Virus record (IMG/VR): IMGVR_UViG_3300010354_007935
Location: 46,284 to 110,283 of that record
DNA: 64,000 bases
DNA from: a virus
Lineage: Duplodnaviria; Heunggongvirae; Uroviricota; Caudoviricetes
Direction: 5' to 3' (one strand)
Shown here: piece by piece, positions 24,765-60,723 of the stretch
Layout: every line of letters starts with the position of its first letter
Numbering within the stretch: the stretch's first letter is position 1
The notes under the pieces: model-generated
Databases searched by the model: none
What the model was told of the DNA's origin: nothing
Seen by the model: only the letters and a program-made list of their open reading frames with translations
Program-made: the position numbers and the translations under genes

Positions 24765-26002
24765 TTATAAACCTCCCACAGACCAGGAATGGTTTCGAAA
24801 ATGTCTTCTTTCCTATGTTGATCTAATTTATAGTTGAAATGGAAGAATTCTTTCATACCTTCTTTGTTTTCTTGTCCAGATTGAAGAGTATTCATTACTG
24901 CTTTATATGCATATCGTTGAGTATCAGAATAAGAATAATCGTTGCGAACAGGTTCGTATAATTCTAGTAACTGTTTTTTATAAAACTCTGGAGCTATTAA
25001 TATTGATGCATACCATGGATTGGTCAGTAAGTTTAGTCTTATTTCTTGAGTTTTAGAAAGTAACCCTTTTTCAATCCAGTCTTTGTGAAATTCAGGAAAC
25101 TGATGAACGTTCCATAATGAAATAGTCGGTGTTAATTCGAATAAAACATGCGGCACTTCTTTTTTAATCATTAGTGCATTTAATTCTATATCGTCCCATA
25201 CGGTTCCTTTGCGTACATACTCTGCTAATGGTCCGCTAGCATCTAAACTTGCGTATATTGCCACTTTAGGAAATTTTTTCCAATAGTCTAGTACATTTTT
25301 ATCTTTGTATTTGAATACACTAAAGTTGGTAGTGTACGTTATTTGTACATCAGTTTTTCCTTTCTCTAACCAGTAATCTAAAATTCTATAGTGTTCTGGA
25401 GTAATAAGGGCTTCGCCGCCAGCAAAATAGACTTCCTCGACGTCGTCGAGATAAGGTTCTAATTTATTCCAAAAATCGTCGCCCTCATTATTAGTGACTA
25501 CAATCTTATGCAAGCCAAATCTATCTCTTAATGTAACTTCTCCGTGTCTATCTTTGTATTCTTGGGCCCACTGACTACTACAACTTGGTCCGCAACTACG
25601 GCATTTCATATTGCAGATGTTGCTAAACCTAATGTCCATGTATTTTAGTTGAAAATTTTCAATGGTTCCGTCTTCTTTAGTTTCGTTAACAAGGTGCAAG
25701 TATGTGTTACCTCTTACACGGTTCTGACTTTGTCTTAGACTCCAAGTACCAAGCAATTCTACATCGTAACATCGTTGACATACTTCACTAGGCTCGTTAT
25801 TAATCATCCTCAGACGAAGTTTCTTGTACTCATCCGAGTTCATCATTTTGATAATACTTTCGTCTGTAGTATGAGCTACCGGTTTAGATGAATCGGCCAT
25901 ACAGCAAGGAAACACTTTTGTGTCCGGCCATGCATGGAAATGAATCCACGGTAGGATACAAAAATTTTTTGTATAAAAAATATCTTCTTCAATTTTTCTC
26001 AT
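24749..26002 (-). CDS. radical SAM enzyme with unrecognised N-terminal Cys/His domain
   Basis: 417 aa. N-terminal FCILPWIHFHAWPDTKVFPCC, then the core CNMKCRSC (CxxxCxxC) and YFAGGEALITPEHY. Confidence 0.75.
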   Translation of the reverse strand: MRKIEEDIFYTKNFCILPWIHFHAWPDTKVFPCCMADSSKPVAHTTDESIIKMMNSDEYKKLRLRMINNEPSEVCQRCYDVELLGTWSLRQSQNRVRGNTYLHLVNETKEDGTIENFQLKYMDIRFSNICNMKCRSCGPSCSSQWAQEYKDRHGEVTLRDRFGLHKIVVTNNEGDDFWNKLEPYLDDVEEVYFAGGEALITPEHYRILDYWLEKGKTDVQITYTTNFSVFKYKDKNVLDYWKKFPKVAIYASLDASGPLAEYVRKGTVWDDIELNALMIKKEVPHVLFELTPTISLWNVHQFPEFHKDWIEKGLLSKTQEIRLNLLTNPWYASILIAPEFYKKQLLELYEPVRNDYSYSDTQRYAYKAVMNTLQSGQENKEGMKEFFHFNYKLDQHRKEDIFETIPGLWEVYKWAHS

Positions 26003-26003
26003 A

Positions 26004-27224
26004 TTAACTCATCATAGATTTTAATTCAGGAAAAGTCTTTGTAAAATCTTCTCCTCGTATTTCGTCAACTCTTTTTATTTGAGATTGGAATTCCAATTTA
26101 TATTGATCCCATGTATTTTCAGCATTTGCAAATGAAATAGCGTTTTGCAAACTTTGTGTAGAATAATAATACTCTAATTTTAATTTATAAATTAAGTGCT
26201 GCAATTTTACACTACCTAATTTTTTAAGTTCTTCGGGCATTAGTTGAGAAGAAAAATAAGCAGGGTCCATGCAAGGAAATAGTGATATATTATCTTTAGG
26301 TCGATAAAATCCTTTTACCTTCATATAAGAATAGAATTCTGACAAGGTTAAAAAATTAAACACGCTCATAACAGTATTGAATTGATAATCAATAAAGTCA
26401 TACTGAGTAATTTGTTTTAGATTAGTTTCTATGACGCCCCAGTCAGTTCCGTGCCTAATATACTCTGCACGTTCTCCAAAATGATCGATACTAGCCGACA
26501 ATTCAATTTTTTTAAATTGTTTCCAAAGACCAATCAAATCATTGTTTTTAAATTTAAAATTGCTTAGGTTAGAGTTATATCTTAAAATAATATTTGTTTT
26601 ATTTCTTTTTATAAGCTCTTCTAAAATTGTATAATGTTCTTCTGTAATTAATGGTTCGCCACCTGCAAAATATGCAATTTCAATATTATCAATATGCTCG
26701 TCTAACACTTCTTGAAGTAAGGCTCCTTTGTTATCATCTGCATGTATAATGATAGGAAAATCTTTATTATAAATTCTATTTTCAGCGCCCCATGAGCTAC
26801 TAAATGCAGAACCGCATGTTCTGCATTTAAAATTACAGATATTACTAAAACGAATATCGTAATAGTACATTTTGAAATCTTTGAGGCTACCGTCTTCGTT
26901 GGTGTTTTCTAAGACTTCGTCTAAATGATGAATAAATTTTTCATTTGCATACGTCCTAAAACTCCAATTTTGAGTCTTTTCAGTTTTATAACAAAATTTA
27001 CAAGACGGGCTTTCGACACCATTCATCATGTTTAACCGTATTTGTTTATATCCGTCGGCATTTTTTATTACATCCTTCAAGGTACCATTCTTTACAGACC
27101 CAAAAGGAAGTTTACCGTCTGTAGTACAACAAGGTAGAACATTACCTGAAGGTTCTACGTAGGCGTGTATCCAGGGTAATATACAAAAAGTTTTATTATC
27201 AACTACAGATTTTTTAGATTCCAT
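26004..27224 (-). CDS. radical SAM enzyme, paralogue of 24749..26002
   Basis: 406 aa. FCILPWIHAYVEPSGNVLPCC, then CNFKCRTC and YFAGGEPLITEEHY. Confidence 0.75.
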   Translation of the reverse strand: MESKKSVVDNKTFCILPWIHAYVEPSGNVLPCCTTDGKLPFGSVKNGTLKDVIKNADGYKQIRLNMMNGVESPSCKFCYKTEKTQNWSFRTYANEKFIHHLDEVLENTNEDGSLKDFKMYYYDIRFSNICNFKCRTCGSAFSSSWGAENRIYNKDFPIIIHADDNKGALLQEVLDEHIDNIEIAYFAGGEPLITEEHYTILEELIKRNKTNIILRYNSNLSNFKFKNNDLIGLWKQFKKIELSASIDHFGERAEYIRHGTDWGVIETNLKQITQYDFIDYQFNTVMSVFNFLTLSEFYSYMKVKGFYRPKDNISLFPCMDPAYFSSQLMPEELKKLGSVKLQHLIYKLKLEYYYSTQSLQNAISFANAENTWDQYKLEFQSQIKRVDEIRGEDFTKTFPELKSMMS

Positions 27225-28587
27225 TTTGGTATTCTTTACATAAATTATAAAAATTTGCTAACTCAGGAAATGTTTCTAGAAAATTAACATTCCTTCTTCG
27301 ATCGTATTCATTAAACCAATTATAAAAGTCTTTTCGACCCTCTTTTAATTTATCTTCGGAGTAGTGTGTTGTTTCCATATATGTTACAACACGACGAAAC
27401 TTTTCATACTCCATTTCACTAAAATGAAACCCAGACGAATCATTTAAATTATTTTTGATAAATGATAGACAATCGTGCATATAGGGCATAAACTCATCTT
27501 TAGGTAATATGTTCATGTCATATTGTAGAGGTTCTTTTAAATGCGGAGTATCGAAACGAATTCTATGTTTAGACAAATGTTCATACCATCCGTATTGTCC
27601 GCGCCATTCTAAGATTTTTTCTAGTAAACTTTTAAAATTACTAACGGTAAGAATATTAAAAGTAATCATAAAAGTTACAGGATATTTTGTTTTACTAAGG
27701 TATGTATGAAAATTTCTTTCCCACAGATCTATATCTAGTCCTGTACGAATATATTCTGCACGTTTACCCCATGTATCTAGGCTAGTAAACAACTTAAAAG
27801 ATTTTATTTTATTTTCTAATCTTAATTTTTCAACTTTTTCAGCTAATCTTTCTACTAAAATAGTCTTTACACCTAAGTTACTGTTGAGATTTAACTCTAA
27901 ATTGGGCAAAGGATTCTTATCTAGGTCCTCAAGCAACCGCCAGGTGCTGCGTTGTAGCAAAGGCTCACCACCGGTTATACGCAAGATGTTTAGAGTTTTA
28001 CTGACTTCAGGCCACCATTTCCACCATGCCTCTACATAAGGGTTAGTTTCTTCCTCATAGGTAGTAAACCAATCAATGTCGTTGCGATGATGTTTGACCA
28101 TAGTATAAGGACCAAAGTCTCTTATTTCTTTATGATAAGCACTACTATGTTTAGGATGGCAGTAACCGCATTTAAAATTGCACTCGCTACCAAAACTAAC
28201 TTCAATGTATTCGGGATTTATATTAAAGTCCCAATTGTTCTTTTGTATTTCTTCTATTCTTTCGGGTCTGTAAATACTGGCATTACGTTCGTGCCGATCA
28301 CTAATATAGTCAGGACCAAGTGCCTCTATGTTCCAGCAATACTGACAACCACTGGGTTGATCGCCATCTAACATGGCAGCACGTTGTAGCTTCTTTTCCT
28401 GTGTATTGTGTAATGCACTAGGATTGTCTTTTAATTCGTGTAAAGGAATCTTATGAGGTGCTGGATGATAACAACTATGTGTTTCTCCAGTTTGTAGGTA
28501 TATTGTTGTATGATGCCATTTTGCAAGGCAAAACGTAGGACTAATTTTATTAGTAATGTCCTGTATTTGAATAATTCTATCTTTCAA
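27214..28587 (-). CDS. radical SAM enzyme, distant paralogue with the same N-terminal domain type
   Basis: 457 aa. FCLAKWHHTTIYLQTGETHSCYHP, then CNFKCGYC and ILRITGGEPLL. Confidence 0.7.
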   Translation of the reverse strand: MKDRIIQIQDITNKISPTFCLAKWHHTTIYLQTGETHSCYHPAPHKIPLHELKDNPSALHNTQEKKLQRAAMLDGDQPSGCQYCWNIEALGPDYISDRHERNASIYRPERIEEIQKNNWDFNINPEYIEVSFGSECNFKCGYCHPKHSSAYHKEIRDFGPYTMVKHHRNDIDWFTTYEEETNPYVEAWWKWWPEVSKTLNILRITGGEPLLQRSTWRLLEDLDKNPLPNLELNLNSNLGVKTILVERLAEKVEKLRLENKIKSFKLFTSLDTWGKRAEYIRTGLDIDLWERNFHTYLSKTKYPVTFMITFNILTVSNFKSLLEKILEWRGQYGWYEHLSKHRIRFDTPHLKEPLQYDMNILPKDEFMPYMHDCLSFIKNNLNDSSGFHFSEMEYEKFRRVVTYMETTHYSEDKLKEGRKDFYNWFNEYDRRRNVNFLETFPELANFYNLCKEYQNGI

Positions 28588-42646: not shown

Positions 42647-43173
42647 ACCTTTGCTCGTTGTTTCATACCCTCTGGGTCACGCTTGTATTCGTCAAGCAGG
42701 TCGCGCAGAGCTTCCTCGACAAATGCGTTAAAAGTCATATCACGTTCGTGCGCGGCAATCATGAACTTTAGTAGTTCGTTGTCAGGAATATCCAGCGGAA
42801 CTTTTACACGGGTATCGTATTCTTCTCCAGCAACCATAGCAGTAATCTTTTCCAAAATATCGTCTTCTACTTCCAAATCAGTAAACTTGCGATCGCAAGC
42901 AGCCTCAAAATCTACATCTTTAAGTACGCATTCAGCCTTGTACTTTTCTACATACTCTGGGCTAATCCAGCGATACTCACGTTCATTTACGTAGTCCCAC
43001 ATTTCGCACATATACACTTCGAAAGTAGCACTATCGAAAATAATATTTGTGCTGTAGTGATCTTCTTTGTCGCAATCTAAATAACGTGCCTCTGGACCAA
43101 ATGTAGTCCAGCCAAACTGTTCACCGCCAGTAATGCGGTATTGTGTAGCTTTAAGAAAGTCTTCGATTCTCAT
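42634..43173 (-). CDS. hypothetical acidic protein (179 aa)
   Basis: ORF only. Confidence 0.3.
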   Translation of the reverse strand: MRIEDFLKATQYRITGGEQFGWTTFGPEARYLDCDKEDHYSTNIIFDSATFEVYMCEMWDYVNEREYRWISPEYVEKYKAECVLKDVDFEAACDRKFTDLEVEDDILEKITAMVAGEEYDTRVKVPLDIPDNELLKFMIAAHERDMTFNAFVEEALRDLLDEYKRDPEGMKQRAKVWAD

Positions 43174-43889
43174 TGTGCAACCTTTACATAGTTAAGTCTT
43201 GTTACAGTACCTTTAGTTTTCCAGTGGAAGCCATGATCTTTAACTTTGGCCTTAATGACAACCGCAGGACCTACGGTTACATTTTTTTGGCTCATCCAAC
43301 TGACTAATTTATTTTCTATTATAGCATCAACATTAAAAGCTTCAAAGTTTTTCGACTTAATGCAGGATAATACTTCGCAGTCCAAATCCAGTAAAGTTTT
43401 ACCAACTTCCCCCAACCAACCTTCTTCTAATGTTTTGGTTTTCTTATGAAATTGGTGTTTGCTCAGGTCTCGTTTGTAAACACTGGGCAAGCAGGCAATC
43501 CAACCAAATTTATTAGTAGTTGTGTTTTCCTTAGTAAGAATTGCATTTAGTTCAGTTTTGAACTCGTCTTCACCTTGAATGGCATTAAACATCAAACGGC
43601 GATAAAACTTTATAATGTCTTCCGTTAATTGCTTATCTTCCATATTGGTTGTGATAAGCTGAGGCTTCATCAAAGGATCTACACCGTTGTAATTGGTTTT
43701 ATCTTCTCCCAACGCAGACAGCATCAATAGCTTGTTTGGCATACGATAACCAATTATTTTATAGTCATCGGTATAAATGGCTTCTGCCGTTTTAATGTAA
43801 TCTTTATTATACCGATAGGCAGCGCATGCCAATTCCAATACCGTTTGGACTGGGTACTCTTTTTCCGGCGCTGGCATAACTTGCTCCAT
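43170..43889 (-). CDS. hypothetical protein (239 aa)
   Basis: ORF only. Confidence 0.3.
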   Translation of the reverse strand: MEQVMPAPEKEYPVQTVLELACAAYRYNKDYIKTAEAIYTDDYKIIGYRMPNKLLMLSALGEDKTNYNGVDPLMKPQLITTNMEDKQLTEDIIKFYRRLMFNAIQGEDEFKTELNAILTKENTTTNKFGWIACLPSVYKRDLSKHQFHKKTKTLEEGWLGEVGKTLLDLDCEVLSCIKSKNFEAFNVDAIIENKLVSWMSQKNVTVGPAVVIKAKVKDHGFHWKTKGTVTRLNYVKVAQ

Positions 43890-43909
43890 TAATTGATAAT
43901 AGTCTTATT

Positions 43910-44575
43910 TTACATGAAAATCAAGTCTGTGTCAACCTTTTGGAGCCTAGTATATACTTTTTTAGTTAACCGATTTATTACAGGGTCGTTGTATTTTGGA
44001 AACTCTGTCTTATACATTCCCAAACTAGGAGCAACAAATTGGCCGTTTAACCTAAGCCTGCTCAATTTGTCTGTGTTGTGCAAATAACGTAAGGCTCTAT
44101 GCTTGCCTAAATTTCTGCAAAGTTCAAATGCTATACTGATTGAATAAGCATCTATTTCATCTGGATCACTTAGATACCTTCCGTGATTGTTATCGTGTTC
44201 TCGGCCAGATTTATAATTACGTTTTCGATATTGCCCTTGATGTCGATATTCGTGTATTAACGAATCGTAAATTTGTATTAAAAGTTCTGTAGAATTTTTT
44301 TCATGCCACGCACCAGTTTTATTAAAATTGTGCGTTATTATTAATTCAATAGGACACTCGTTATTTTTATCGTCTTCAGGATCATAAAAACCGTTAACAT
44401 AAAAAACATCTGTGTTGAGATTTTTATCTTTAACGGTCTTTATTTTTAATTCAATTTCATGTAACTTTAATTCTTTACGAATCATAGCTAACAGCTTTTG
44501 GAAACTAACTCCTCCCTGAGTTCTACGTCTTATGCTAGTACATATTTCGCAGACAGTTTCCATTATACCATTCAT
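43910..44575 (-). CDS. HExxH zinc-metalloprotein family protein (paralogue of 33880..34611)
   Basis: 221 aa. SLIHEYRHQGQYRKRNYKS...DPDEIDAYSISIAFEL is colinear with the other copy. Confidence 0.4.
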   Translation of the reverse strand: MNGIMETVCEICTSIRRRTQGGVSFQKLLAMIRKELKLHEIELKIKTVKDKNLNTDVFYVNGFYDPEDDKNNECPIELIITHNFNKTGAWHEKNSTELLIQIYDSLIHEYRHQGQYRKRNYKSGREHDNNHGRYLSDPDEIDAYSISIAFELCRNLGKHRALRYLHNTDKLSRLRLNGQFVAPSLGMYKTEFPKYNDPVINRLTKKVYTRLQKVDTDLIFM

Positions 44576-44577
44576 AG

Positions 44578-44796
44578 TTACAACCTATAAATTACCCTAC
44601 CTTTTGACAAGTCGTATGGGCTGACTTCTACTTTCACATTATCACCTAAGATAATGCGAATCTTGTTTTGCTTTAACCTACCACCCATGTAACAGAGTAA
44701 AGGGTTGGGCATATTGTCCACTTTAACCCTAAACATGTTTCCTGGTAATACTTCGTCTACTTTGCCTGTGAGTTCAATAATATCGTCTTTAGCCAT
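44578..44796 (-). CDS. infA: translation initiation factor IF-1 (S1-like OB fold)
   Basis: 72 aa. ...[54 protein letters not shown] is colinear with bacterial IF-1 (...TMFRVELENGH...[33 protein letters not shown]). Confidence 0.85.
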   Translation of the reverse strand: [72 protein letters not shown]

Positions 44797-44799
44797 TAT

Positions 44800-44964
44800 T
44801 TCTTTTCTAGAATGATTGATCCTTCTTCAACTGTAACCGTAATTACATCGCCTTCTTTCCAGCCTAGCTTGTCACGAATTTCTTGGGGGATATTCATGAG
44901 GACGTTTTCAGGGTCCCCGTTGATTTCTTCAAAAATTTCGCTTGCATCGTAAGTGTACTTTTCC
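44800..44964 (-). CDS. small protein (53 aa), possible swapped-hairpin (AbrB/MazE-like) fold
   Basis: Manual translation MEKYTYDASEIFEEINGDPENVLMNIPQEIRDKLGWKEGDVITVTVEEGSIIL. Not in the ORF track. Confidence 0.25.
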
Positions 44965-44985
44965 ATAGCAGTATTTACTCTTAAT

Positions 44986-45534
44986 TTAATTTGTGTCAGA
45001 ATCTTTTACAACTAGCCAACCTAGTTTATATAAATCGTTTTCGATTTCTTCAGTAACTACACTTTCTGCAACGTAGTCTCTTCCGTCCCAAAGTTTATTT
45101 TCTTCCTCGTCGTGACTAACATTTCGAATACCAGAACAGTACCAATCAATGTAATCACCTTTTTGTTGCATGTGAGCAATAATACCTCCAGCATAGCGCC
45201 AAGAGCATGACCATTTTTGGTCTTTTAGCAAAGGCCACATTTCTCGTTTGATAAAATCATTATTACACATTGCGGCATACAAGTTTTGAGCATAAGCATC
45301 GTTGGCACGAACCTTTTCTAAAATCCAATCGGTGGTACGCAGATCCCATTCTAGGTTATCTTTTCGCCATTTAGGGTCTGCTTCCTGGGCATCTTCTCGC
45401 TCATCCCAAGACTCGTAGTACTCAACCATGGCGCGAGTATTTTCGTCGTTCTCGGGAGTCTTGCCTTTTTCAGCTTGACGTTTGAGATAGTTTTCCTTTT
45501 GGAAAGTATTACGCTGAGGGCTTTTGCTAATCAT
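44986..45534 (-). CDS. hypothetical protein (182 aa, Trp-rich)
   Basis: ORF only. Confidence 0.3.
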   Translation of the reverse strand: MISKSPQRNTFQKENYLKRQAEKGKTPENDENTRAMVEYYESWDEREDAQEADPKWRKDNLEWDLRTTDWILEKVRANDAYAQNLYAAMCNNDFIKREMWPLLKDQKWSCSWRYAGGIIAHMQQKGDYIDWYCSGIRNVSHDEEENKLWDGRDYVAESVVTEEIENDLYKLGWLVVKDSDTN

Positions 45535-45844
45535 GATAGTTACCTTGCAAGCAATGTAGCATTTCGTGACCTAGATTGTCAATAGTGAACTTTTTCGGAA
45601 TAATTATAGTGCAAGTGTTAGCTTCCCAAAACGAGCAGGCTTGCATGGCGAATCCAAATCCATTTCGTCCTCGTTTACGGCTTTCAGTTTCACAGACTTT
45701 GTCAACATTATCGACAGCCCGAATCGTAACAGTTGTTTTATTTGTGAAGTTGTTTTTGGCATCGTACTTAAAATTAGGATTTTGCCAATCGGCGAGAACA
45801 TTAGTCGAAACCAAAATGGTTGTCAAAACAAGTGCCTTAATCAT
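45527..45844 (-). CDS. small secreted protein with HExxH motif
   Basis: MIKALVLTTILVSTNVLA signal peptide. C-terminal NLGHEMLHCLQG. Preceded by the conserved 5'-UTR motif CACACAGAGGCACAA. Confidence 0.4.
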   Translation of the reverse strand: MIKALVLTTILVSTNVLADWQNPNFKYDAKNNFTNKTTVTIRAVDNVDKVCETESRKRGRNGFGFAMQACSFWEANTCTIIIPKKFTIDNLGHEMLHCLQGNYHD

Positions 45845-45870
45845 TTGTGCCTCTGTGTGTAGTTAATCGG

Positions 45871-45966
45871 TGCAGACGGTAGGATTCGAACCTACAAAGG
45901 CAGCTAATAGCCTAGCCCTGTTCCCTCCCCGAAGGGAGGAGGTCTACCAATTCCACTCACGTCTAC
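45871..45966 (-). tRNA. tRNA-like element (class-II-like, atypical core)
   Basis: rc gives GTAGACG...GGAATTGGTAGA...GTAGG-TTCGAAT-CCTAC-CGTCTGC-A. This forms a 7-bp acceptor stem, a canonical T-arm (GGTTCGAATCC) and a Leu/Tyr-type D-loop. The central 45 nt contain a perfect 6-bp hairpin with a UUCG loop and do not fold into a canonical anticodon arm. Confidence 0.45.
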
Positions 45967-46011
45967 GGTTATATTATAACAGCATTTGAACAAAAAGTCA
46001 ATCTGTTTTGG

Positions 46012-46522: not shown

Positions 46523-48001
46523 ATGGAAGTCATATTATTAACATCAGTTTTGCCCTATCGTCTAGATGACAAAAATGTACAAGGAAGATCCTTGTACAGG
46601 GGTATGGGTGCCTATCAAGTAGCTTGGTATTTGCGAGAACACAATTATAACGTTCAAGTTATCGACTTTGTTTTCCAACGATCCGAAGCAGAGGTTGTTG
46701 ACGCTGTTAGCAGATATGTAACAGACGAAACAAAAGTAATTGGATTTGGGGTATTGGGGAACACAGTATATGATAGGCTACTATATCTTAGAGTCGCTAG
46801 CTTAATGTTTAAGCTCAAGGAAAAATTTCCTCGATTAAAATATGTTGGTGGCGGCCCAACTGCCAATCGTTTTGATTGGTTTTTGCCTCCGAAGTTGTTT
46901 GATCATATTATTGTAGGGCATGCCGAAGACACTATGCTTGCCTACTGTAATCATGTATTTAGAAACGGGCCTGCTGTTCCTTTTGAAATTAGTGCTCGCG
47001 GGAATAGACTTATCAAAGAATCGTTCTCAGTTCCAGTTGAAAAAAAATTTGATATACAGCATGATCGACATAGGTGGCACGAACGCGACTTTGTACAACC
47101 CGGCGAATCTTTACCAATTGAAACTACACGCGGCTGTATCTTTAAATGTAAGTTTTGTCAGTATCCGTTAATTGGAAAGCATAAGCTAGATTTTCTTCGA
47201 GATATGGAACTAATTAAAGAAGAAATGATAGATAATTATAATAAGTTTGGAACTACAAACTATTACATGTTAGACGATACTTTTAATGCCGACAAAGATC
47301 GTGTCGAAGCTTTTGCTAACATGGCTGCTAGTTTGCCTTTTAAAATAAGATACGCAACATATCTTAGATTAGATCTAATAGAAGCTCACAGACAAACAGA
47401 AGATATGCTTAAAGAGAGCGGTCTATTTGGTGCATTTTTTGGTGTAGAAACTTTTAATAAGGAAGCTGCGTCTCTCATCGGAAAATCTTTTAGTGGAAAA
47501 AAAGCTAAAGACTACCTTCCAGAGCTAGCCCATCAAAAATGGAATAGTGAGATCATTATCTTCTGCGGAATGATAGCAGGCATTCCTCCAGAGACAGTCG
47601 AAGAACTTTGGGAAACAAATCAATGGTTAAAGGATAACAATATCAATGGGTGGCATTGGAACGGTTTACATTTAAGTAATCACCACATCAAAGAATGGTC
47701 CAGCGAATTTGAACAAAATGCAGAGCAATACGGATTTAGATTTACAGGCCCTGATCAATGGGCACACGGCGAATATCATACATCGCAGAAAGCTCGTCAG
47801 TGGGCGCTGGACTTAGTTAAAGATTCTATTTCTCATCAACGTACTGCTTCATGGAACGGAATTGAATTGTTAAATTATCCTTCTATGACCACGCATGAAA
47901 TCTTAACTCGCCGAGTTAAAGACTATAATTTAGATCATCCTGTGCATGCTGACAGGAAAAAATTCCTAGATAATTATTGGTATCAAATTATGAATTCTTA
48001 A
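46523..48001 (+). CDS. B12-binding (class B) radical SAM enzyme
   Basis: 492 aa. N-terminal Rossmann-like B12-binding region (...VIGFGVLGNTV...), then ETTRGCIFKCKFCQYP (CxxxCxxC). Only plus-strand enzyme gene at the island edge. Confidence 0.7.
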   Translation: MEVILLTSVLPYRLDDKNVQGRSLYRGMGAYQVAWYLREHNYNVQVIDFVFQRSEAEVVDAVSRYVTDETKVIGFGVLGNTVYDRLLYLRVASLMFKLKEKFPRLKYVGGGPTANRFDWFLPPKLFDHIIVGHAEDTMLAYCNHVFRNGPAVPFEISARGNRLIKESFSVPVEKKFDIQHDRHRWHERDFVQPGESLPIETTRGCIFKCKFCQYPLIGKHKLDFLRDMELIKEEMIDNYNKFGTTNYYMLDDTFNADKDRVEAFANMAASLPFKIRYATYLRLDLIEAHRQTEDMLKESGLFGAFFGVETFNKEAASLIGKSFSGKKAKDYLPELAHQKWNSEIIIFCGMIAGIPPETVEELWETNQWLKDNNINGWHWNGLHLSNHHIKEWSSEFEQNAEQYGFRFTGPDQWAHGEYHTSQKARQWALDLVKDSISHQRTASWNGIELLNYPSMTTHEILTRRVKDYNLDHPVHADRKKFLDNYWYQIMNS

Positions 48002-49253
48002 GATCACCTATACTTGTAAGTATAGTTGGTGCGTCTAGAAGATCTTGGTCTAAATCATACACCGGTTGGAAATTAACTACAGGACCAAGTTTATAGTATT
48101 TCCTCCAAGATTTAAAACCAAGTAATCCTTTTACTGGGTCGTAATCTAAAAATTTCTTATCTAGAGATCCAACTAGATTTTCCAAGTCTGATACCATCAT
48201 TTCCCATATCTTAGTACCGGAGTGATGGCGATAGAACCAGTCGTCGTGTCTGCCTAGTAACATTCTGTCAGGCTTGCCTGCTTGATAACTCCATTTCTTG
48301 ATTGCTGGATAGATAGCAGGGACAATGCCTCTTTCATAAACACCTGCATTAAATGTAACAGAATCGACTCTAGGCAATGCTGTTGGTGTATCAGGTCTTT
48401 TAAGCCTGTCATCGTTGATCAGCATCATGTCGTAAACATTCCTATTTTCTGGCCGCATTAAAAATCTGGCTGCTAAATGTGCCTGTTTGACTATCATTAA
48501 GGGAAGTTCAGGACTATGATAAAAAAATATTTGATCCGTGTTTGGATGATTTATTGAATTATACTTGTTATTATAAATGTTATCTCTAAACATAATATAA
48601 AAATGATCTTTAGATCTAACAATTGAGGGTTTATCAATACCTTGAACAACCGCAATCCTTTTTCCAGACTCTGCAATACGTTTTAAATGTGTAAGGCGAT
48701 CTAAATTATAACGGCCAGCCATAGTTGGGTGTAACCAGTCGTTACATTTAAGTAACCAATCGTCTGCTTTATAATTCAGCATGTCCTGAAAGTAATCATG
48801 TAATGTAACTTTGATTTTAGGATATTTTTCTCGTATTGTATTAAGCCACGGAATCTGAGTTAAGAAAGTTTCTTCTATAGTGTTTTCAACTCTCGTATCC
48901 GACGGATCAGGATTCTTCCAATCTCGTAATCCTTCTAACGGAGCACTTCCAACTACTTCATCTATGTGCAACCCGTTATTTACAAAAGCGTGAAACATGT
49001 TTGTACTGTCAGCGCCGCCACTACAGAACATTACAATATAATCGTATTTTTCTCTTATCTGTCTAGCTCGTATAGCATAAAATTCATCTATGCTAGTTGT
49101 CGGCTCTTGTGTCCAGTCTATTGCTGAAAAGATATTATCATTGAAAACCCACTCCATATCTGTTCGTAGTTGCTGGGCTTTAAACATGGCCATAATTTTA
49201 TTATGAAATTTTTCTGTACCAACTTTATAATACCCTAAATCGTCTAAGTTCAT
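47988..49253 (-). CDS. PP-loop ATP pyrophosphatase family protein (AsnB-C-terminal / amidotransferase-like), paralogue 1
   Basis: 421 aa. YIVMFCSGGADSTNMFHAF (SGGxDS PP-loop). Confidence 0.55.
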   Translation of the reverse strand: MNLDDLGYYKVGTEKFHNKIMAMFKAQQLRTDMEWVFNDNIFSAIDWTQEPTTSIDEFYAIRARQIREKYDYIVMFCSGGADSTNMFHAFVNNGLHIDEVVGSAPLEGLRDWKNPDPSDTRVENTIEETFLTQIPWLNTIREKYPKIKVTLHDYFQDMLNYKADDWLLKCNDWLHPTMAGRYNLDRLTHLKRIAESGKRIAVVQGIDKPSIVRSKDHFYIMFRDNIYNNKYNSINHPNTDQIFFYHSPELPLMIVKQAHLAARFLMRPENRNVYDMMLINDDRLKRPDTPTALPRVDSVTFNAGVYERGIVPAIYPAIKKWSYQAGKPDRMLLGRHDDWFYRHHSGTKIWEMMVSDLENLVGSLDKKFLDYDPVKGLLGFKSWRKYYKLGPVVNFQPVYDLDQDLLDAPTILTSIGDLKNS

Positions 49254-50584
49254 TCTAAGTATCCTATATCCCTTCTATAGGTAAATTGACCTACATATTG
49301 TGTATCTAAGTAATCATAAATTCGTTTCGCTGCTTCCTGTCTTGAATTAGCTGTAGTTGTAAACAACGAATGTTTAATATAATATCTTTCAATGCCCATT
49401 GTTGCTCCAGCACATGTTTCAATACTTTGAATTATATTATCAGGTATGTTTTCAAACTTTGGTAGAAATGATGCAGGCCTGAGCCAGTCGTAAACACGAT
49501 TAAACACTCGTACAGAAACTGTAGACTTATTATTATGGATTACATCGGGGATCGGAAGATCTGCACTTGCCGCATAAAATAATTCAGATAAGTTATTTTC
49601 AACAGAGCCTAAAATTGAGCATAATTCAGGGTCACCACTTCGAGTATTAATTTCTAAAATATACGGAACATTATTCTTGTCAACAGCTATGCCTAAAAAT
49701 ATAAATCCCCGATAAAAGTCGTTTGATTTGCCGAGGTAGTCTTTTAAAAAATTAAAAATTTTATCGGCATATTCGTGTACTATCGGATCAGGATCGACGT
49801 TGTAACAACCAAGCCCAACAGTATTATACCCGCTGTCGCCGTCTTTTAATTTTTTATAATCTCTTGCAGAACCTAAATATTTCCAGCCGCTACGATTAAA
49901 CAATGCATGATAAGAGTACTCTCGTTTAATTTCCATGTATTCTTCTAGTACAATTTCTGTATCAAGATTTATGTTTGTAAGTTGTGCGTCACCGTTAACT
50001 AAGTACCCAAATAGTTCTTCAAAAACTGTTTCGTAATTGTCGTCGTCGACAATAATTGTTTGTCTGCCTGACTGATATACAAAATCCAACTTTACTACAA
50101 ATGGTCGTGCAAGACTTTTAAAATTTTTATAAAGATATCGCCCGTCCATTTTTTGATATTTTGGTGTTGGAATACCACATTTAGCAAGAAGTTGTTTGGT
50201 TAGATGTTTACTTCTTTCTAAATCTGTAATTTTTGGATTAACAAAAAAATAAGGTATTTTTCTATCTTGCAAATAATTGTGTATAAATGAACTTCGAGGA
50301 ACTGGGAGCCCGGACGCTAAAACAAAGTCGATTTTTTTATCTTCTGAAAATTCAGCAAATCGTTTCATGGCATTACCTACATTGAGATCGTAAGGTAACC
50401 ATGTAGTTATAGGTTCGTAGTTTTCAGTTGCCTTTACTCCAACAGCAGCTCCAAAATGATAAACGTGTGAATCCTTTTTTAGTAGCTGTGCTAAATGGTG
50501 GTAAGGGCACACCGATGACAATATAGCAATATTCATTTTTGAATTAATTTTATTACCCAGAATGTTGGATCTAATTCCCACCAA
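49250..50584 (-). CDS. ATP-grasp ligase, PurD (GAR synthetase)-like
   Basis: 444 aa. ERSKHLTKQLLAKCGIPTPKY (cf. PurD EGSKAFTKDFL...IPTAEY) and ILEINTRSGDPE (cf. PurD EFNxRFGDPE). Confidence 0.65.
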   Translation of the reverse strand: MVGIRSNILGNKINSKMNIAILSSVCPYHHLAQLLKKDSHVYHFGAAVGVKATENYEPITTWLPYDLNVGNAMKRFAEFSEDKKIDFVLASGLPVPRSSFIHNYLQDRKIPYFFVNPKITDLERSKHLTKQLLAKCGIPTPKYQKMDGRYLYKNFKSLARPFVVKLDFVYQSGRQTIIVDDDNYETVFEELFGYLVNGDAQLTNINLDTEIVLEEYMEIKREYSYHALFNRSGWKYLGSARDYKKLKDGDSGYNTVGLGCYNVDPDPIVHEYADKIFNFLKDYLGKSNDFYRGFIFLGIAVDKNNVPYILEINTRSGDPELCSILGSVENNLSELFYAASADLPIPDVIHNNKSTVSVRVFNRVYDWLRPASFLPKFENIPDNIIQSIETCAGATMGIERYYIKHSLFTTTANSRQEAAKRIYDYLDTQYVGQFTYRRDIGYLE

Positions 50585-53852: not shown

Positions 53853-54809
53853 TTAGTGTAATTGAATCTTTTGTACTAAACCTGGTGTGAAGTAGTCTTC
53901 AAATTTGGCATAAACTACTTTAGTAGCTTCTGCAAAACGAGCTTGCTCATCGGCGCTCATCTTAACAACTTCGATACCATCTGCTTCAGCGCGAGCTTGA
54001 ACTAGAGCAATGTCTTCAATGCTCAGTGTGCGCTCGTGACGTGCAGCAACTTTAGCACTTTCAGCAACAACAGTTTGTAGCTCTGGGCTCAATGTGTTCC
54101 AGAAGTCTGTACCAATTAGAATACTTGTTAAGAACAAGCTGTGTTCTGTATGGTTAATAACTTTAGATACTTTGTCATGTCCAAGTGCATAAACACGAGG
54201 ATATGTACTTTCGCCAACTGTTACATTAGCTGTACCTAAGTTCTCACTTAGTTCTTCTAGTTCCATTGGAACTACATCAGCGCCAAGTGTCTTGAATGTT
54301 TCAATAGCAACTGGGCTGAAACTTGTACGCATCTTCATACCACGTAGGTCTTCAATCTTAGCAACGGTTTCGTTACCAGGAATAATACGGAAACCACCTG
54401 AATATGTAAATGCTAGTCCTTTAACTTTCTTGCTAGCTTCTAAGCTGTTTAGCAACTCTGCACCAACTTCGCCTTCAAACACACGACTAGCATGGTCGTG
54501 ATCCTTAAACAAGAATGGCAAGTCTAAAGCATAAAAGTCTTTGTTAATCTTACCTAATGTGATTGTATAAGTTTGGCTCATTTGGATAGCACCGCTGTCT
54601 AGCAAATCAACTAGACTGTGCTTGTCAACTACAACACCGTTGTTATACTTTTCAGCATATTCGCTCATGGTCATAACTTCGATTTCTAGTTGCTCTGGCG
54701 CACGAGCATTTACTTCGTCAGCAAATACTTTTGCAGCACGAATAAACAACTCGATTGGCTCGTGGGCTAAAACCCATTTTACGTGACGTTTTGTCATATG
54801 TTTCTCCAT
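53853..54809 (-). CDS. TRAP-transporter DctP-like solute-binding protein homologue, no signal peptide
   Basis: 318 aa. LDLPFLFKDHDHASRVFEGEVGAELL is colinear with DctP LDLPYLFRDYEHARKVLDGEIGQELL. No DctQ/DctM genes are present. Confidence 0.5.
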   Translation of the reverse strand: MEKHMTKRHVKWVLAHEPIELFIRAAKVFADEVNARAPEQLEIEVMTMSEYAEKYNNGVVVDKHSLVDLLDSGAIQMSQTYTITLGKINKDFYALDLPFLFKDHDHASRVFEGEVGAELLNSLEASKKVKGLAFTYSGGFRIIPGNETVAKIEDLRGMKMRTSFSPVAIETFKTLGADVVPMELEELSENLGTANVTVGESTYPRVYALGHDKVSKVINHTEHSLFLTSILIGTDFWNTLSPELQTVVAESAKVAARHERTLSIEDIALVQARAEADGIEVVKMSADEQARFAEATKVVYAKFEDYFTPGLVQKIQLH

Positions 54810-58646: not shown

Positions 58647-59362
58647 AAGCTAATGCCCCCATCGACAACAATTGTTTGTCCTGTTAAGTGCTTGTTGAAT
58701 ATAACACTTTCTACCATCTGTGCAATATCTTCAGCTTCTCCTACACGTTTTAACGGAGTCATATTAGCAATCTGCTCGTTAGCGCCCGGAGGTTTAACTG
58801 CGCCAGACGTAGCTTTTTCAAGATATCCTGGTGCTATTCCAATTACTCTAATTTTAGGTGCAAGACTTTTTGCAAGTGTCTTTGTCATCAAGTCAATTCC
58901 GGCCTTAGCAGCACCGTAGGCCAGGTTACTAGTACTTGCTCTTAGACCAGCAGTCGACGAAATGTTTATAATAACACCATCGGACATGAAGGGGTGAAAC
59001 GCACGTATGGTAGAAAATGTTCCTCGAAGATTTGTGTTAATTATTTCGTCAAATATATCGTCAGTTAGTTCTTGTAGTTTTATAGGCTGGATACTTCGTG
59101 TATATCCTGCTGTATTAATTAAGATATCACAGCGTCCAATTTTTTGTGCTGCGGATACTAGGCTAGCAGAATCAGTTACATCGGCAAGAACCGCACAACA
59201 TTTTGGAGAAAGAAGACGCATTCTTGCATTGTATTCTTCCAAATCTCGTCTTACTAGTGCAACAACTGTGGCACCCATTCCTGCTAATCGATTTGAAATA
59301 GCCCAACCAACTTGTCCACAGCCTCCGGTTATTACTACAGTTTTTTCTCTTAGTGTATTCAT
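58643..59362 (-). CDS. short-chain dehydrogenase/reductase (SDR)
   Basis: 239 aa. TGGCGQVG (TGxxxGxG NAD(P)-binding), NTAG, YGAAKAG (YxxxK). Confidence 0.8.
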   Translation of the reverse strand: MNTLREKTVVITGGCGQVGWAISNRLAGMGATVVALVRRDLEEYNARMRLLSPKCCAVLADVTDSASLVSAAQKIGRCDILINTAGYTRSIQPIKLQELTDDIFDEIINTNLRGTFSTIRAFHPFMSDGVIINISSTAGLRASTSNLAYGAAKAGIDLMTKTLAKSLAPKIRVIGIAPGYLEKATSGAVKPPGANEQIANMTPLKRVGEAEDIAQMVESVIFNKHLTGQTIVVDGGISL

Positions 59363-60723
59363 ATATTATATAGTAGTTTAAATGCATCCTCTTTTAATTT
59401 TTTCTTATCAACTTTATGCACACTTGTTAATGGCATAGTTTTGATAATCCAAATATCTCGAGGGCACGAGTATGCCGGCAATTTTTGTAAGGCAAAACTC
59501 TTTATTTCTTCAATTGTAACATCATTAGTAATAGTGATAAAGGCATATGGCTTCATTCCTTTAATTTCGTCTTCTACACCAACAACCGCTGCTTCTCTTA
59601 CACAATCATGTTCTTCTAAAATAGATTCGACTTGTCTTGGATAAACATTATTTCCTCCGCACACAAACATATCATCGGCTCTGCCAACGAAATAGAAAAA
59701 TCCGTGTTCATCTTCTCTAAACAGGTCGTTAGTAATGAAAAAGTTGTCTTGGGTAAAATTATTAGATGTATTATTGTATCCAATCATCATAGATGGACTT
59801 TTTACTTGCAGTATACCGTCAACTATTCGATATTCGATACCTGGTATTCGACAACCAACGCTGAGTTCAGGCGTGGGTTTTGTTTTATGAAATCCAAAAA
59901 GCCCAGGGCCGACTTCAGTACTACCGTATGCAATTGATACGCCGGCACTGGGTATTCTATTTTTAACTTCTCTATATAGACTTAAACTTACAGGTGCGCT
60001 GCCCATAGCTATATGTTTTACGCAAGACAGATCTTGATCTGATAGTTCATTGAGTAGCAAAGACATCATAGTAGGAACTGAACTGACATAATTGATACGA
60101 TGTTCTAAAATTAAATCGATAGCTTTTTTGGGTTCAAATTTTACCATCAAGCATGCTGTTGCTCCGCTACAAAGACAAACTTCTATATTCGATAGCCCGT
60201 TCATGTGATACATTGGTGCTGCAACTAACATTCTAACTTTCGGCCAAAAATCAGATCGAGTCTTTTCTTTGAGTGTCCAAAGATGCCTGTGTGGGATTAT
60301 TACTCCCTTTGGTTTGCTAGTTGATCCAGACGTGTATAGAATAAAGGCTGGATCCGACTCGGCCATGTGCTCTACAATAACTGGGCCGGCTTCAAGGTAG
60401 TTTTTAAAATTGTTTTCTGTAAGAACAATTTTAGATTTGCTATCCTCTATTATGTAATTAACAAGAGTTTCAGGTAATCTATCGCTTATTAATACTGCAA
60501 CTGCACCAAGTCTTAATATTCCAAGATATGCAGTAATTAGATTTATACTATTTTCAGACTTAATAGCTACCCTGTCACTTTTACCAATACCGGCTTTTTG
60601 TAAACCGTTGGCATATTGATTGGCTAGGTCATCAACATCGTTAAAAGTATAGGAGCCATTATGGACTACTGCAACTTTATCATCTTTTCTGTTTAGTAGG
60701 TTACCTAGGTTGTAAGGGTACAT
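59359..60723 (-). CDS. AMP-dependent synthetase/ligase (acyl/aryl-CoA ligase-type adenylating enzyme)
   Basis: 454 aa. YTSGSTSKPKGVIIPH (AMP-binding core motif), YGSTE, GDMF... Confidence 0.8.
   Translation of the reverse strand: MYPYNLGNLLNRKDDKVAVVHNGSYTFNDVDDLANQYANGLQKAGIGKSDRVAIKSENSINLITAYLGILRLGAVAVLISDRLPETLVNYIIEDSKSKIVLTENNFKNYLEAGPVIVEHMAESDPAFILYTSGSTSKPKGVIIPHRHLWTLKEKTRSDFWPKVRMLVAAPMYHMNGLSNIEVCLCSGATACLMVKFEPKKAIDLILEHRINYVSSVPTMMSLLLNELSDQDLSCVKHIAMGSAPVSLSLYREVKNRIPSAGVSIAYGSTEVGPGLFGFHKTKPTPELSVGCRIPGIEYRIVDGILQVKSPSMMIGYNNTSNNFTQDNFFITNDLFREDEHGFFYFVGRADDMFVCGGNNVYPRQVESILEEHDCVREAAVVGVEDEIKGMKPYAFITITNDVTIEEIKSFALQKLPAYSCPRDIWIIKTMPLTSVHKVDKKKLKEDAFKLLYNI

Follow-up and report, generated by a model that had tools for sequence, protein, structure and literature searches.

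A tRNA-Leu-like RNA lacking an anticodon arm at the head of a phage operon

Phage tRNAs are currently explained by codon-usage matching or by the replacement of host tRNAs destroyed by anticodon nucleases. Neither explanation applies to an RNA that has no anticodon, and the locus described here raises the question of what such an RNA is and what it could do. It lies in a 64,000-nt stretch of tailed-phage DNA (hereafter, the window), in which the original prediction, made from the letters alone, had recognized a tRNA-like element with a UUCG-capped hairpin at its core. Several readings had been offered, among them a tRNA carrying a small intron or insert, a degenerate tRNA, an attP core remnant and a tRNA-derived structured element. 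Our analysis agrees with the last of these: the element belongs to a conserved, covarying family derived from class II tRNA-Leu.

The only tRNA-like gene that ARAGORN reports in the 64 kb lies at 45869-45966. Read on the minus strand from 45966 to 45869, it folds into a cloverleaf of 98 nt: the acceptor stem has 7 bp, the D arm is of Leu type, the variable arm is long, the T arm is canonical, the 3' end is A73-CC, and a UUCG-looped 6-bp hairpin occupies the place of the anticodon arm. The acceptor stem, T arm, Leu-type D loop and hairpin of the original prediction are thus all present. From 45966, the 5' to 3' order is GUAGACG, UG, AGUGGAAUUGGUAGACCU, CCUCCC-UUCG-GGGAGG, GAAC, AGGGCUAGGCUAUUAGCUGCCUU, U, the T arm, CGUCUGC, A and CC. 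The parts are as follows.

45869..45966, minus strand: tRNA-like RNA, read as an anticodon-less tRNA-Leu mimic, including the encoded CC (ARAGORN call; 100 bits with covariance model R1; covariation)
45960..45966, minus strand: 5' strand of the acceptor stem, GUAGACG, pairing with 45872-45878
45940..45957, minus strand: D arm AGUGGAAUUGGUAGACCU, with a Leu-type 11-nt loop and a 3-bp stem plus an extra U (RNAalifold; tRNA-Leu(UAA) of related phages)
45924..45939, minus strand: anticodon-position hairpin CCUCCC-UUCG-GGGAGG, 6 bp, or 7 with U27.G44; tetraloop at 45930-45933
45897..45919, minus strand: variable arm AGGGCUAGGCUAUUAGCUGCCUU, made of AGGGC / UA bulge / GGCU-AUU-AGCU / GCCUU (RNAalifold; covariation)
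45896, minus strand: U48, directly after the variable arm, invariant in the family
45879..45895, minus strand: T arm GUAGG-UUCGAAU-CCUAC, fully paired across the family
45872-45878, minus strand: 3' half of the acceptor helix, CGUCUGC
45871, minus strand: A73
45870-45869, minus strand: C74 and C75

The D loop contains A14, A15, G18, G19, U20 and A20a, and RNAalifold builds the D stem from A10-U, G11-C and G13-C, with U12 bulged. The interval first proposed ended at the discriminator; the CC at 45870-45869 most likely belongs to the RNA as well. Despite a varying trailer, 134 of the 137 loci encode ACCA; the window is one of the three ACCG loci: the base after C75 is a G here and A76 in most family members. 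The RNA is far beyond chance, as indicated by the ARAGORN call, by a match to tRNA-Sec and by homologues with compensatory changes in many viral contigs. At gathering and E-value thresholds, Rfam returned no family entry and only this tRNA-Sec match, which is sub-threshold (30.3 bits, E = 4e-4) and has D-stem mismatches. A nil score with covariance models had been proposed as grounds for dismissing the element. Rfam does indeed score nothing at its gathering thresholds, but the RNA is real nonetheless; the nil score reflects a family missing from Rfam and not an unreal RNA.

Among the elements of a canonical decoding tRNA, the acceptor/CCA end, the T stem-loop and the G18G19 D arm are present, but the window has no anticodon arm of the standard kind, in which a 5-bp stem carries a 7-nt loop with U33, the anticodon and purine 37. 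The claim that the middle cannot be folded into such an arm is borne out by ARAGORN itself, whose tRNA-Arg(tcg) assignment is forced: it accepts a C.A mismatch and slides the 6-bp UUCG hairpin, itself perfect, out of register. Homologues are reported as Arg(tcg), Pro(ggg), '???(cggg)' or not at all, and only the UUCG subtype is called Arg. The gathering threshold of the Rfam tRNA model RF00005 (29 bits) is not reached by the window or by five other subtypes, whereas odd tRNAs in locus L002 pass it. tRNA-Sec (RF01852) was rejected, as it needs an 8/5 or 9/4 architecture, a 6-bp D stem, a UCA anticodon and at least 47 bits, against the 7/5 architecture and 30.3 bits found. tmRNA was also discarded: ARAGORN makes no tmRNA call, the RNA is 98 nt long and its 3:70 pair is A-U. 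An intron-containing tRNA, and with it the small intron or insertion suggested originally, finds no support in the ARAGORN intron search (-i), and no halves of an anticodon loop are conserved on either side of the insert in 87 distinct homologues.

Across the family, the hairpin in the anticodon position measures 12-34 nt and is closed by UUCG, UUUG, CUUG, GCAA, GUGA or C-rich loops; a 7-nt loop is never present. Its basal pairs covary, and between the basal CC/GG pairs nothing is conserved in the 87 homologues, which show no conservation of U33, an anticodon or purine 37 in this region. Three different hairpins were found on scaffolds with an identical variable arm and few base differences in the acceptor stem and D loop. 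The anticodon arm has been replaced by a stable capped hairpin that is free to vary in length and sequence. Since this hairpin stands in for the anticodon arm, the RNA should be unable to decode.

Family members, 96-119 nt long, were detected in more than 180 IMG/VR viral contigs. The family is defined by its score with covariance model R1 and by three features, all of them found in the window: a -10 hexamer that ends about 6 nt short of position 1 on the upstream side, an encoded (A)CC(A) and, following it, the AU-rich leader of a same-strand operon. R1 was built from 87 distinct sequences, including that of the window, which as a training sequence scores 100 bits. Members found independently through the neighbouring protein score 98-125 bits; the range of the whole family is 95-125 bits, and genuine tRNAs do not exceed 39 bits. 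In the alignment, 95.6% of helix cells are paired, compared with 37-55% when partners are slid, both sides have changed in 18 of 28 pairs, and none of 500 shuffles reached the observed score. The acceptor stem is paired in 99.2% of cells, with both-side changes in five of its seven pairs, and the variable arm, which RNAalifold predicts independently, has such changes in seven of nine. In the T arm, paired in 100% of cells, pair 50:64 covaries (UA, CG, AU, GC), and a G52-C62 to A-U change occurs in the protein-selected set. RNAalifold recovered the acceptor, D, variable and T helices unaided. Flanking proteins are only about 37-52% identical between loci, whereas the RNA core is almost invariant. 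These patterns argue for purifying selection with compensatory changes, and they oppose the earlier suggestion of a degenerate tRNA.

Searches for the family elsewhere were negative, and all members found come from uncultured phages. In 50,697 records of cultured and deposited phages, blastn with the region and with the RNA and tblastn with the 182-aa neighbouring protein gave generic T-arm matches or nothing. A hairpin-independent pattern had 18 matches in 185,579 cellular genomes, all of them chance occurrences in unrelated sequence, and no family member was among them. Our literature searches did not find a published description of an anticodon-less phage tRNA mimic.

What the RNA has kept points to leucine. 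In Escherichia coli, the leucine determinants are exactly U8, A14, A15, G18, G19, A20a, U48, T54, T55, C56, A58 and A73, and the anticodon and variable arm are dispensable, to the extent that a minimal tRNA-Leu without both is still charged (PMC9976931). All 12 residues are invariant in 33 distinct sequences selected through the neighbouring protein and thus free of the search pattern. The corresponding E. coli-type elements (A15-U48, G18G19, A20a, U8-A14, G18:U55, G19-C56, U54:A58 and A73) are also invariant in the set of 87; in the largest sample the search pattern fixed most D-arm and T-loop positions, and the invariance of these positions rests on the smaller independent samples. The D loop, likewise invariant in the pattern-free set, is the same as in tRNA-Leu(UAA) genes found at the equivalent locus in related phages. 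When genuine tRNAs were scored with R1, tRNA-Leu came top at every locus tested, T4 included, with 30-39 bits, the best matches outside the family. Derivation from a class II tRNA-Leu is supported by these sequence comparisons. The RNA is also probably leucylatable by the host leucyl-tRNA synthetase (LeuRS), judged by E. coli rules, which may not be those of the host.

The surroundings of the RNA on the same strand suggest how it would be made.

45996..46001, minus strand: -35 hexamer TTGACT, sigma-70 type (promoter scan)
45973..45978, minus strand: -10 hexamer TATAAT (promoter scan), its end separated from G1 of the RNA by 6 nt
45845..45867, minus strand: AU-rich 23-nt leader AUUAACUACACACAGAGGCACAA, carrying a Shine-Dalgarno-like AGAGG and followed by the operon's first gene
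43170..45844, minus strand: co-transcribed operon of six ORFs (ORF list, Pfam/NCBIfam matches, synteny)
45527-45844, minus strand: secreted Cys-rich HExxHCxxGxxH protein, 105 aa, first gene of the operon
44986-45534, minus strand: 182-aa protein
44796-44966, minus strand: AbrB/MazE-fold protein
44578-44796, minus strand: IF-1 homologue
43910-44575, minus strand: 221-aa protein
43170-43889, minus strand: 239-aa protein

The promoter, TTGACT-17-TATAAT, has 11 of 12 consensus matches and a TG preceding the -10 hexamer. Transcription is predicted to start at G1 or within a base or two of it, and among 96 distinct upstream regions from the family, 73 keep the 6-nt gap between the -10 hexamer and the RNA. 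No terminator was found between the RNA and the first gene of the operon; the RNA could therefore act while joined to the mRNA, a point against action in trans. Operon synteny is kept in 69-73 of 74 main-type loci. Comparison of the neighbouring genes with PHROGs, PADLOC, NCBIfam and Pfam named only IF-1, the AbrB/MazE fold and radical SAM enzymes; none of the genes showed a domain of a tRNA enzyme or aminoacyl-tRNA transferase, or one with a defence or anti-defence role.

None of these genes behaves as a dedicated protein partner, a possibility that co-occurrence tests rejected. Among 80 loci selected by the 105-aa protein, 49 carry the RNA, ending about 25 nt before the ORF in all 49, and the other 31 lack it and have the same promoter immediately followed by the same leader. 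Conversely, the RNA occurs without the 105-aa protein as the first downstream gene in 27 of 124 loci (22%). The RNA is missing from 76 of the 80 loci with the 182-aa protein; IF-1 is present in 16 of these 80, only three of which have an intact RNA. An infA homologue lies about 1.2 kb downstream of the RNA in 72 of 74 main-type loci, but in the GUGGUCG subtype the RNA has no nearby IF-1 in 13 of 13 loci. No syntenic gene is specific to RNA-bearing loci, and in locus L193 only a 3' remnant of the RNA is left. The RNA is an accessory, dispensable module, and the operon genes are its context and not established partners.

We tentatively favour, with somewhat less than even confidence, a stand-alone RNA of about 96-98 nt that acts in trans as a CCA-ended, probably leucylatable, non-decoding mimic of tRNA-Leu. 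Host RNA polymerase would start at or beside G1 from the consensus sigma-70 promoter, in which case RNase P trimming would be little needed or unneeded. Cleavage in the AU-rich stretch that follows (A)CC(A) would then release the RNA from the mRNA downstream, and the 3' end of the RNA would be trimmed or repaired to CCA, as with bacterial tRNA genes that encode CCA. Host LeuRS would recognize and probably leucylate it, which is feasible without an anticodon because bacterial LeuRS reads A73 and the D-loop/T-loop hinge (A15-U48, G18G19, A20a, U8-A14). Having no anticodon, the RNA would stay outside decoding and act in trans by competing for, or decoying, a factor that binds a class II tRNA body and CCA end. 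As to this factor, our speculative first choice would be a host enzyme of defence or toxin type that is directed at tRNA. Defences that attack the class II tRNA body have a precedent. The original prediction had mentioned a processing signal and a decoy for tRNA-targeting defence nucleases, and both are conceivable; among such nucleases, those that cut anticodons are unlikely targets of a decoy, since the RNA has no anticodon loop. We know of no defence that targets tRNA-Leu outside that loop. It may be added that a stoichiometric RNA is an inefficient decoy for a catalytic enzyme unless binding is very tight. It is also conceivable, at low probability, that a LeuRS-charged phage tRNA has lost its anticodon deliberately, so as to be used off the ribosome only, either as a high-affinity decoy that neutralises a host immune enzyme directed at the class II tRNA body or CCA end, or as a private leucine donor to an aminoacyl-tRNA-dependent transferase, with the rapidly swapped hairpin serving as an arms-race or partner-specific surface.

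The RNA might instead be a cis-acting leader, whose tRNA-shaped 5' end works while attached to the operon transcript or through its own removal: the acceptor helix could hide the 5' triphosphate end and slow 5'-end-dependent decay, or a defined RNase E/Z site could fix where the mRNA begins, in the manner of tRNA punctuation or of the mascRNA of MALAT1. Such a role would suit an RNA whose first base is at the predicted +1, which no terminator separates from a start codon 23 nt away and which keeps a constant position before the ORF, and the promoter and leader that exist without it make it resemble an add-on to the transcript. However, an acceptor/T minihelix suffices for processing enzymes, and a mere processing or stability signal has no need of a constrained Leu D loop, A15-U48, a variable arm, A73 and CCA; moreover, the different first gene in 22% of loci means that the RNA is not bound to one mRNA. 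We regard a cis-acting leader as unlikely. Less likely again is an off-ribosome leucine donor for an aminoacyl-tRNA-dependent transferase that would spare the decoding tRNA pool; such a transferase might be an L/F-transferase that supplies the N-degron/Clp pathway, for example, or a biosynthetic enzyme of the Fem or PEARL type. A donor would explain why the LeuRS identity set and CCA end were kept while decoding was lost, and the window also encodes a ClpP protease, GNAT, AMP-binding and ATP-grasp proteins and many radical SAM/SPASM enzymes. Nevertheless, no aminoacyl-tRNA transferase domain was found among the scanned window ORFs of at least 150 aa, the syntenic genes show no specificity for loci that carry the RNA, and the link to ClpP is mere co-residence in 64 kb.

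The IF-1 homologue in the same operon suggests a ribosome-directed mimic resembling the tRNA-like domain of tmRNA with SmpB, in which the OB-fold protein would fill the decoding centre of the 30S A site and the RNA would provide the acceptor end. The downstream gene is a bona fide infA homologue in nearly all main-type loci (72/74), 'ACCUCC' is invariant in the RNA, and the CCUCC/GGAGG base of the hairpin can be likened to a Shine-Dalgarno/anti-Shine-Dalgarno duplex. This is nonetheless very improbable: IF-1 and the RNA are each found without the other (an intact RNA in only 3/16 of the IF-1 loci above, and no nearby IF-1 in 13/13 loci of the GUGGUCG subtype), some subtypes have CCAG/CUGG or CCGG/UUGG at the base of the hairpin, and both an mRNA-like part and an ARAGORN tmRNA call are absent. 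Two further readings are contradicted by the data and barely credible. An ordinary decoding tRNA would be either the tRNA-Arg(UCG) of the ARAGORN call or a tRNA-Leu with a small spliced intron, tRNA-Leu(UAA) genes being classic intron hosts. Yet the Arg reading breaks a perfect hairpin and turns into Pro, '???' or nothing in homologues, the window and five other subtypes stay below the Rfam tRNA threshold, and the insert, not called as an intron by ARAGORN, is only 12-34 nt long and has no conserved U33, anticodon or purine 37 about it. tRNA genes are frequent phage integration sites, and the 3' remnant in L193 could be taken as a trace of a decaying tRNA pseudogene or an attP tRNA-derived core, as the original prediction had considered. 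The RNA in the window is, however, full length, with its own promoter and with compensatory changes in four helices of its family; no integrase domain was found among the scanned window ORFs, and no matching cellular tRNA gene in the 185,579 genomes.

Compared with known systems, the trans-acting mimic that we favour is closest to tRNA-Leu. With bacterial and phage class II tRNA-Leu, such as the tRNA-Leu(UAA) genes at the same locus in related phages (L176, L181 and L221) and T4 tRNA-Leu, the RNA shares the 7-bp acceptor stem, U8, A15-U48 and A73; both have the Leu-type D loop GGAAUUGGUAKAC, a variable arm that is long, the T loop GGUUCGAAUCC and a CCA present in the gene. It differs from them in its 12-34-nt capped hairpin, which replaces the 5-bp/7-nt anticodon arm, in the extra D-stem U, the invariant 'ACCUCC' and a longer, bulged triloop variable arm, in a promoter that starts transcription at position 1 and in the failure of the Rfam tRNA model. 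The extra U or the overlong variable arm could impair LeuRS binding. The tRNA-like domain of tmRNA (SsrA) likewise has an acceptor, a T arm and CCA without an anticodon, and is aminoacylatable outside normal decoding. However, tmRNA carries G3.U70 for alanine identity, contains pseudoknots and a tag ORF, has its D arm reduced, needs SmpB and is about 260-400 nt long or in two pieces, whereas in the present family 3:70 is A-U, G-C or G.U, the D arm is complete and the length is 96-119 nt.

Phages are known to encode other stable small RNAs associated with tRNA genes, such as T4 RNAC and RNAD (species 1 and 2 RNAs), to which no function has yet been assigned (PMC3014915, PMC9697503). At its end, RNAC has a T arm and a helix resembling an acceptor stem, but rnaC scores only 16 bits with R1, which indicates no kinship by sequence or model. 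The two T4 RNAs are 119-139 nt long, have no Leu-type D arm and no CCA encoded in the record, and lie inside a tRNA cluster, whereas the RNA in the window heads an mRNA operon. Mimicry of tRNA that draws in the host's tRNA enzymes (RNase P/Z, the enzyme that adds CCA and sometimes an aminoacyl-tRNA synthetase) without decoding is also known for plant-virus 3' TLSs, MHV-68 vtRNAs and mascRNA. These eukaryotic mimics either stand at the 3' terminus of a genome or are made as pol III/lncRNA products, often with a pseudoknotted acceptor and degenerate D or variable arms, in contrast to the present RNA, which is encoded by a bacteriophage and has a class II tRNA body close to perfect.

The family is thus widespread, strongly constrained and apparently restricted to phages, and it retains the leucine identity set and CCA end by which tRNA enzymes could recognize it. 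If the RNA is charged or bound by a host factor, it would represent a non-decoding use of the tRNA shape in bacteriophages and a testable handle on tRNA-directed conflict between host and phage. It may already have been sampled: DNAVirus_2961, a covarying candidate RNA from IMG/VR, overlaps an ARAGORN tRNA-Arg 'only sometimes' (PMC10690425), which is how a family with Arg calls confined to its UUCG subtype would behave. The likeness is one of description only, and that paper gives no anatomy, Leu assignment or context. tRNA finders miss the RNA or mislabel it as tRNA-Arg, tRNA-Pro or 'undetermined', and a dedicated covariance model would correct these phage annotations.

The 98-nt gene at 45966-45869 on the minus strand is the sole tRNA-like gene that ARAGORN detects in the 64-kb window, and it was called tRNA-Arg(tcg). 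Its parts, read from the sequence in 5' to 3' order, are as follows.

From 45966, minus strand: acceptor 5' strand GUAGACG, then UG
Following these, minus strand: D arm AGUGGAAUUGGUAGACCU
Between D arm and variable arm, minus strand: hairpin CCUCCC-UUCG-GGGAGG, then GAAC
Minus strand: variable-arm hairpin AGGGC-UA-GGCU-AUU-AGCU-GCCUU, then U
Minus strand: T arm GUAGG-UUCGAAU-CCUAC
Minus strand: acceptor 3' strand CGUCUGC, then A and CC

The acceptor stem, T arm, D loop and 6-bp UUCG hairpin listed in the original prediction are thus all present, and its statement that the middle cannot be folded as a 5-bp/7-nt anticodon arm holds. The arginine call is wrong, because ARAGORN obtains a 7-nt loop only by shifting the register of a perfectly paired hairpin and tolerating a C.A mismatch. 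Rfam 15 at its gathering thresholds gives no match; in E-value mode the top match was tRNA-Sec, with 30.3 bits where 47 are required. The intron, organellar and tmRNA modes of ARAGORN added nothing, and the small intron or insertion once suggested is not supported. No ORF of at least 40 aa overlaps the element on either strand. As a decoding tRNA, the element fails on both its anticodon arm and the Rfam model.

Homologues were retrieved from IMG/VR with three patterns: one requiring only TTGGTAGA, TTCG and the T loop (three homologues), one combining hairpin and T loop (22 more loci) and a hairpin-independent one combining D arm and T loop (at least 120 matches). Together they yielded at least 137 loci and at least 87 distinct sequences of 94-119 nt, a lower bound on family size. 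In the largest sample most bases of the D arm and T loop were set by the search pattern itself, so invariance is claimed from the samples drawn through the hairpin or a neighbouring protein. The hairpin-independent pattern had 18 matches in 185,579 bacterial and archaeal species (one genome each), none of them a family member, and among 50,697 deposited phage records neither blastn nor tblastn retrieved a relative. The window's own phage was seen again only in metagenome assemblies. In these searches the family is confined to phages, on viral metagenomic contigs.

Between the D and variable arms, family members carry hairpins of several forms.

12 nt: CCAG-CUUG-CUGG
Window type: CCUCCC-UUCG/UUUG-GGGAGG
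Longer form: CCUCC-U-AGUA-GC-UUCG/GCAA-GC-GAA-C-GGAGG
30-34 nt: forms with an ACCCCC loop
Further form: hairpin with a GUGA cap

None of these forms contains a 7-nt loop, a conserved U33 or a purine 37; the RNA has no anticodon. The free exchange of tetraloops suggests that the apex is a structural cap. The hairpin module evolves far more rapidly than the remainder of the RNA, as three different hairpins occur on scaffolds (the window and L009; L042, L065 and L117; L118 and L132, all related viral loci) that have the variable arm GGGCUAGGCUAUUAGCUGCC in common and otherwise differ only at a few bases of the acceptor and D loop. In the longer forms, the AGUA/GAA internal loop presumably resembles a bulged-G (loop E) module. 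Just 3' of the D loop, ACCUCC (window 45938-45943, minus strand) is invariant in all family members, usually with a following U that completes the anti-Shine-Dalgarno heptamer ACCUCCU, and is paired with GGAGG on the other side of the hairpin; genuine tRNA-Leu genes of related phages have ACAC at this position.

The cloverleaf-type fold is under selection. When a structure made up of the acceptor, the D arm, the base of the hairpin, the variable arm and the T arm was tested on the alignment of 87 sequences, 95.6% of cells were paired, against 37-55% when partners were slid by 1-3 columns. Both sides had changed in 18 of the 28 pairs, and none of 500 shuffles reached the observed covariation score. 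Without an input structure, RNAalifold recovered the acceptor, D stem (with an extra U bulged), variable arm and T arm. The helices covary and the RNA core is almost invariant beside proteins only ~37-52% identical between loci, which rules out a pseudogene and with it the degenerate tRNA previously considered.

To avoid ascertainment by RNA patterns, 80 loci were fetched via the downstream 105-aa protein; the RNA was present in 49, scoring 98-125 bits with R1, the covariance model of the family. Invariant in the 33 distinct sequences so selected were U8, A14, A15, G18, G19, U20, A20a, U48, T54, T55, C56, A58, A73, C74 and C75. E. coli tRNA-Leu needs A15-U48, G18G19, A20a and the D/T-loop tertiary pairs; A73 is crucial, the anticodon and long variable arm are not, and charging persists in truncated versions from which the anticodon arm or the variable arm is missing (PMC9976931). 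The RNA therefore carries a Leu-type identity set, by the rules of E. coli LeuRS, which may not be those of the host. Among real tRNAs, R1 placed tRNA-Leu genes top at every locus tested (38.9, 38.4, 36.3 for T4, 34.4 and 32.4 bits, against 27.7 for Ser and 24 for Tyr). In some related phages the equivalent site in front of the 182-aa gene holds a tRNA cluster (Met, Arg, Leu-UAA, Val), and the cluster's tRNA-Leu(UAA) shares with the RNA the GGAAUUGGUAUAC D loop, A73 and an encoded CCA. The simplest origin would be a phage tRNA-Leu whose anticodon arm was swapped out.

The geometry of promoter and CCA end is well defined. The promoter TTGACT-17-TATAAT (11/12 matches, TG-extended) ends 6 nt upstream of G1, a spacing kept in 73 of the 96 distinct upstream regions among the loci listed, and position 1 is a purine in all family sequences. 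ACCA stands at the 3' side in 134 of the 137 loci listed, and ACCG in three, including the window. An AU-rich leader (AUUAACUACACACAGAGG...) follows, with the first gene after 23 nt and no terminator between the RNA and that gene. The downstream operon encodes:

45527-45844, minus strand: gene 1, secreted Cys-rich 105-aa protein with C-terminal HExxHCxxGxxH
182-aa protein
44796-44966, minus strand: AbrB/MazE-fold 56-aa protein, adjoining the IF-1 gene
44578-44796, minus strand: true IF-1 homologue (TIGR00008, 88.9 bits; cut-off 61.15)
Two further proteins without assigned family

This very small protein of ~105 aa has a signal peptide; four of its cysteines are invariant, as is the HExxHCxxGxxH, a metzincin-like zinc motif. 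Relatives are encoded on at least 335 IMG/VR contigs.

Of the 74 main-type loci with enough sequence, 64-73 have the operon genes after the RNA, and the IF-1 homologue is kept in 72. No operon gene is specific to the RNA, and its distribution is accessory: the 182-aa gene mostly lacks it (76/80 loci), as does the 105-aa gene in 31/80, and a 13-locus RNA subtype heads another gene set, without IF-1. In RNA-less loci the same promoter is fused directly to the same leader, and in one locus (L193:1955-1999) all but the 3' third of the RNA is gone; it is therefore an optional module, placed exactly at the predicted +1 of the operon. The L193 remnant, a natural deletion derivative directly behind a TATAAT box and ahead of the usual leader and 105-aa gene, retains the variable-arm 3' strand, T arm, acceptor 3' strand and ACCA. 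The RNA-headed operon is probably early, because host polymerase reads it.

Transcription would start at G1, and a cut within the AU-rich trailer would free the RNA, which would then mature to a CCA end. LeuRS would recognise and probably leucylate it, and it would take no part in decoding. We favour, speculatively, a competitor or decoy acting in trans on a factor that recognises the body and CCA end of class II tRNAs, because the module, like anti-defence genes, is accessory and probably early, because loss of the anticodon would render the mimic harmless to translation, and because there is precedent for defences directed at the body of class II tRNAs. Leucine donation to an aminoacyl-tRNA-dependent transferase is a further speculative role. 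A cis-acting leader or processing module, also speculative, would account for the position of the RNA but leaves the constraint on D loop, A15-U48, variable arm, A73 and CCA unexplained. The RNA might likewise be a ribosome-directed partner of the IF-1 homologue, a speculation weakened by the occurrence of each without the other.

By anatomy, class II tRNA-Leu genes are the closest relatives. By function it comes nearest to the tRNA-like domain of tmRNA, although that domain has another identity, size and set of partners, to the tRNA mimics of eukaryotic viruses, and to T4 RNAC/RNAD, which still lack an assigned function (PMC3014915, PMC9697503). No tRNA lacking an anticodon loop is described in reviews of non-canonical tRNAs (PMC7609411). 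One candidate of an IMG/VR structured-RNA survey, DNAVirus_2961, sometimes overlaps ARAGORN tRNA-Arg calls (PMC10690425) and may be this family. We rate the RNA as a new family among tRNA mimics.

Other odd RNAs were encountered. Two class-II-like tRNAs lie on a different phage contig (L002:11495-11591 and L002:2790-2905, both minus strand). One scores 47 bits with the Rfam tRNA model and combines a Leu-type D loop, long variable arm and A73 with the 7-nt loop UUCUCUG (anticodon CUC, Glu); from its sequence it could place Leu at GAG codons. The other (113 nt, 37.6 bits) has an additional T-arm-like hairpin. Immediately after two tRNA-Leu genes, a ~165-nt RNA (L016:5530-5694, minus strand; GGGGAAG...CUUCCCC-ACCA) carries a T arm and a CUCCCUUCGGGGAG hairpin identical to that of the window element; ARAGORN made no tmRNA call on it. 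Amber-suppressor-like 'tRNA-Pyl (cta)' calls by ARAGORN lie just 3' of the 182-aa gene in two related contigs (L164:3970-4046 and L198:3945-4019).

Auxiliary genes are unusually numerous in the window (15834-16397, 17054-18073, 24749-28587, 46523-48001, 49250-50584, 53853-54809, 59359-60723; 4373-15196). They include at least four radical SAM/SPASM enzymes, a B12-binding radical SAM enzyme adjoining the RNA, an AMP-binding enzyme, a GARS-like ATP-grasp enzyme, a DctP solute-binding protein, UvdE, an Fe/Mn superoxide dismutase and one 3607-aa ORF. A pooled scan of the window ORFs also detected ClpP, Bax1-I, PTPS, BKACE and GNAT.
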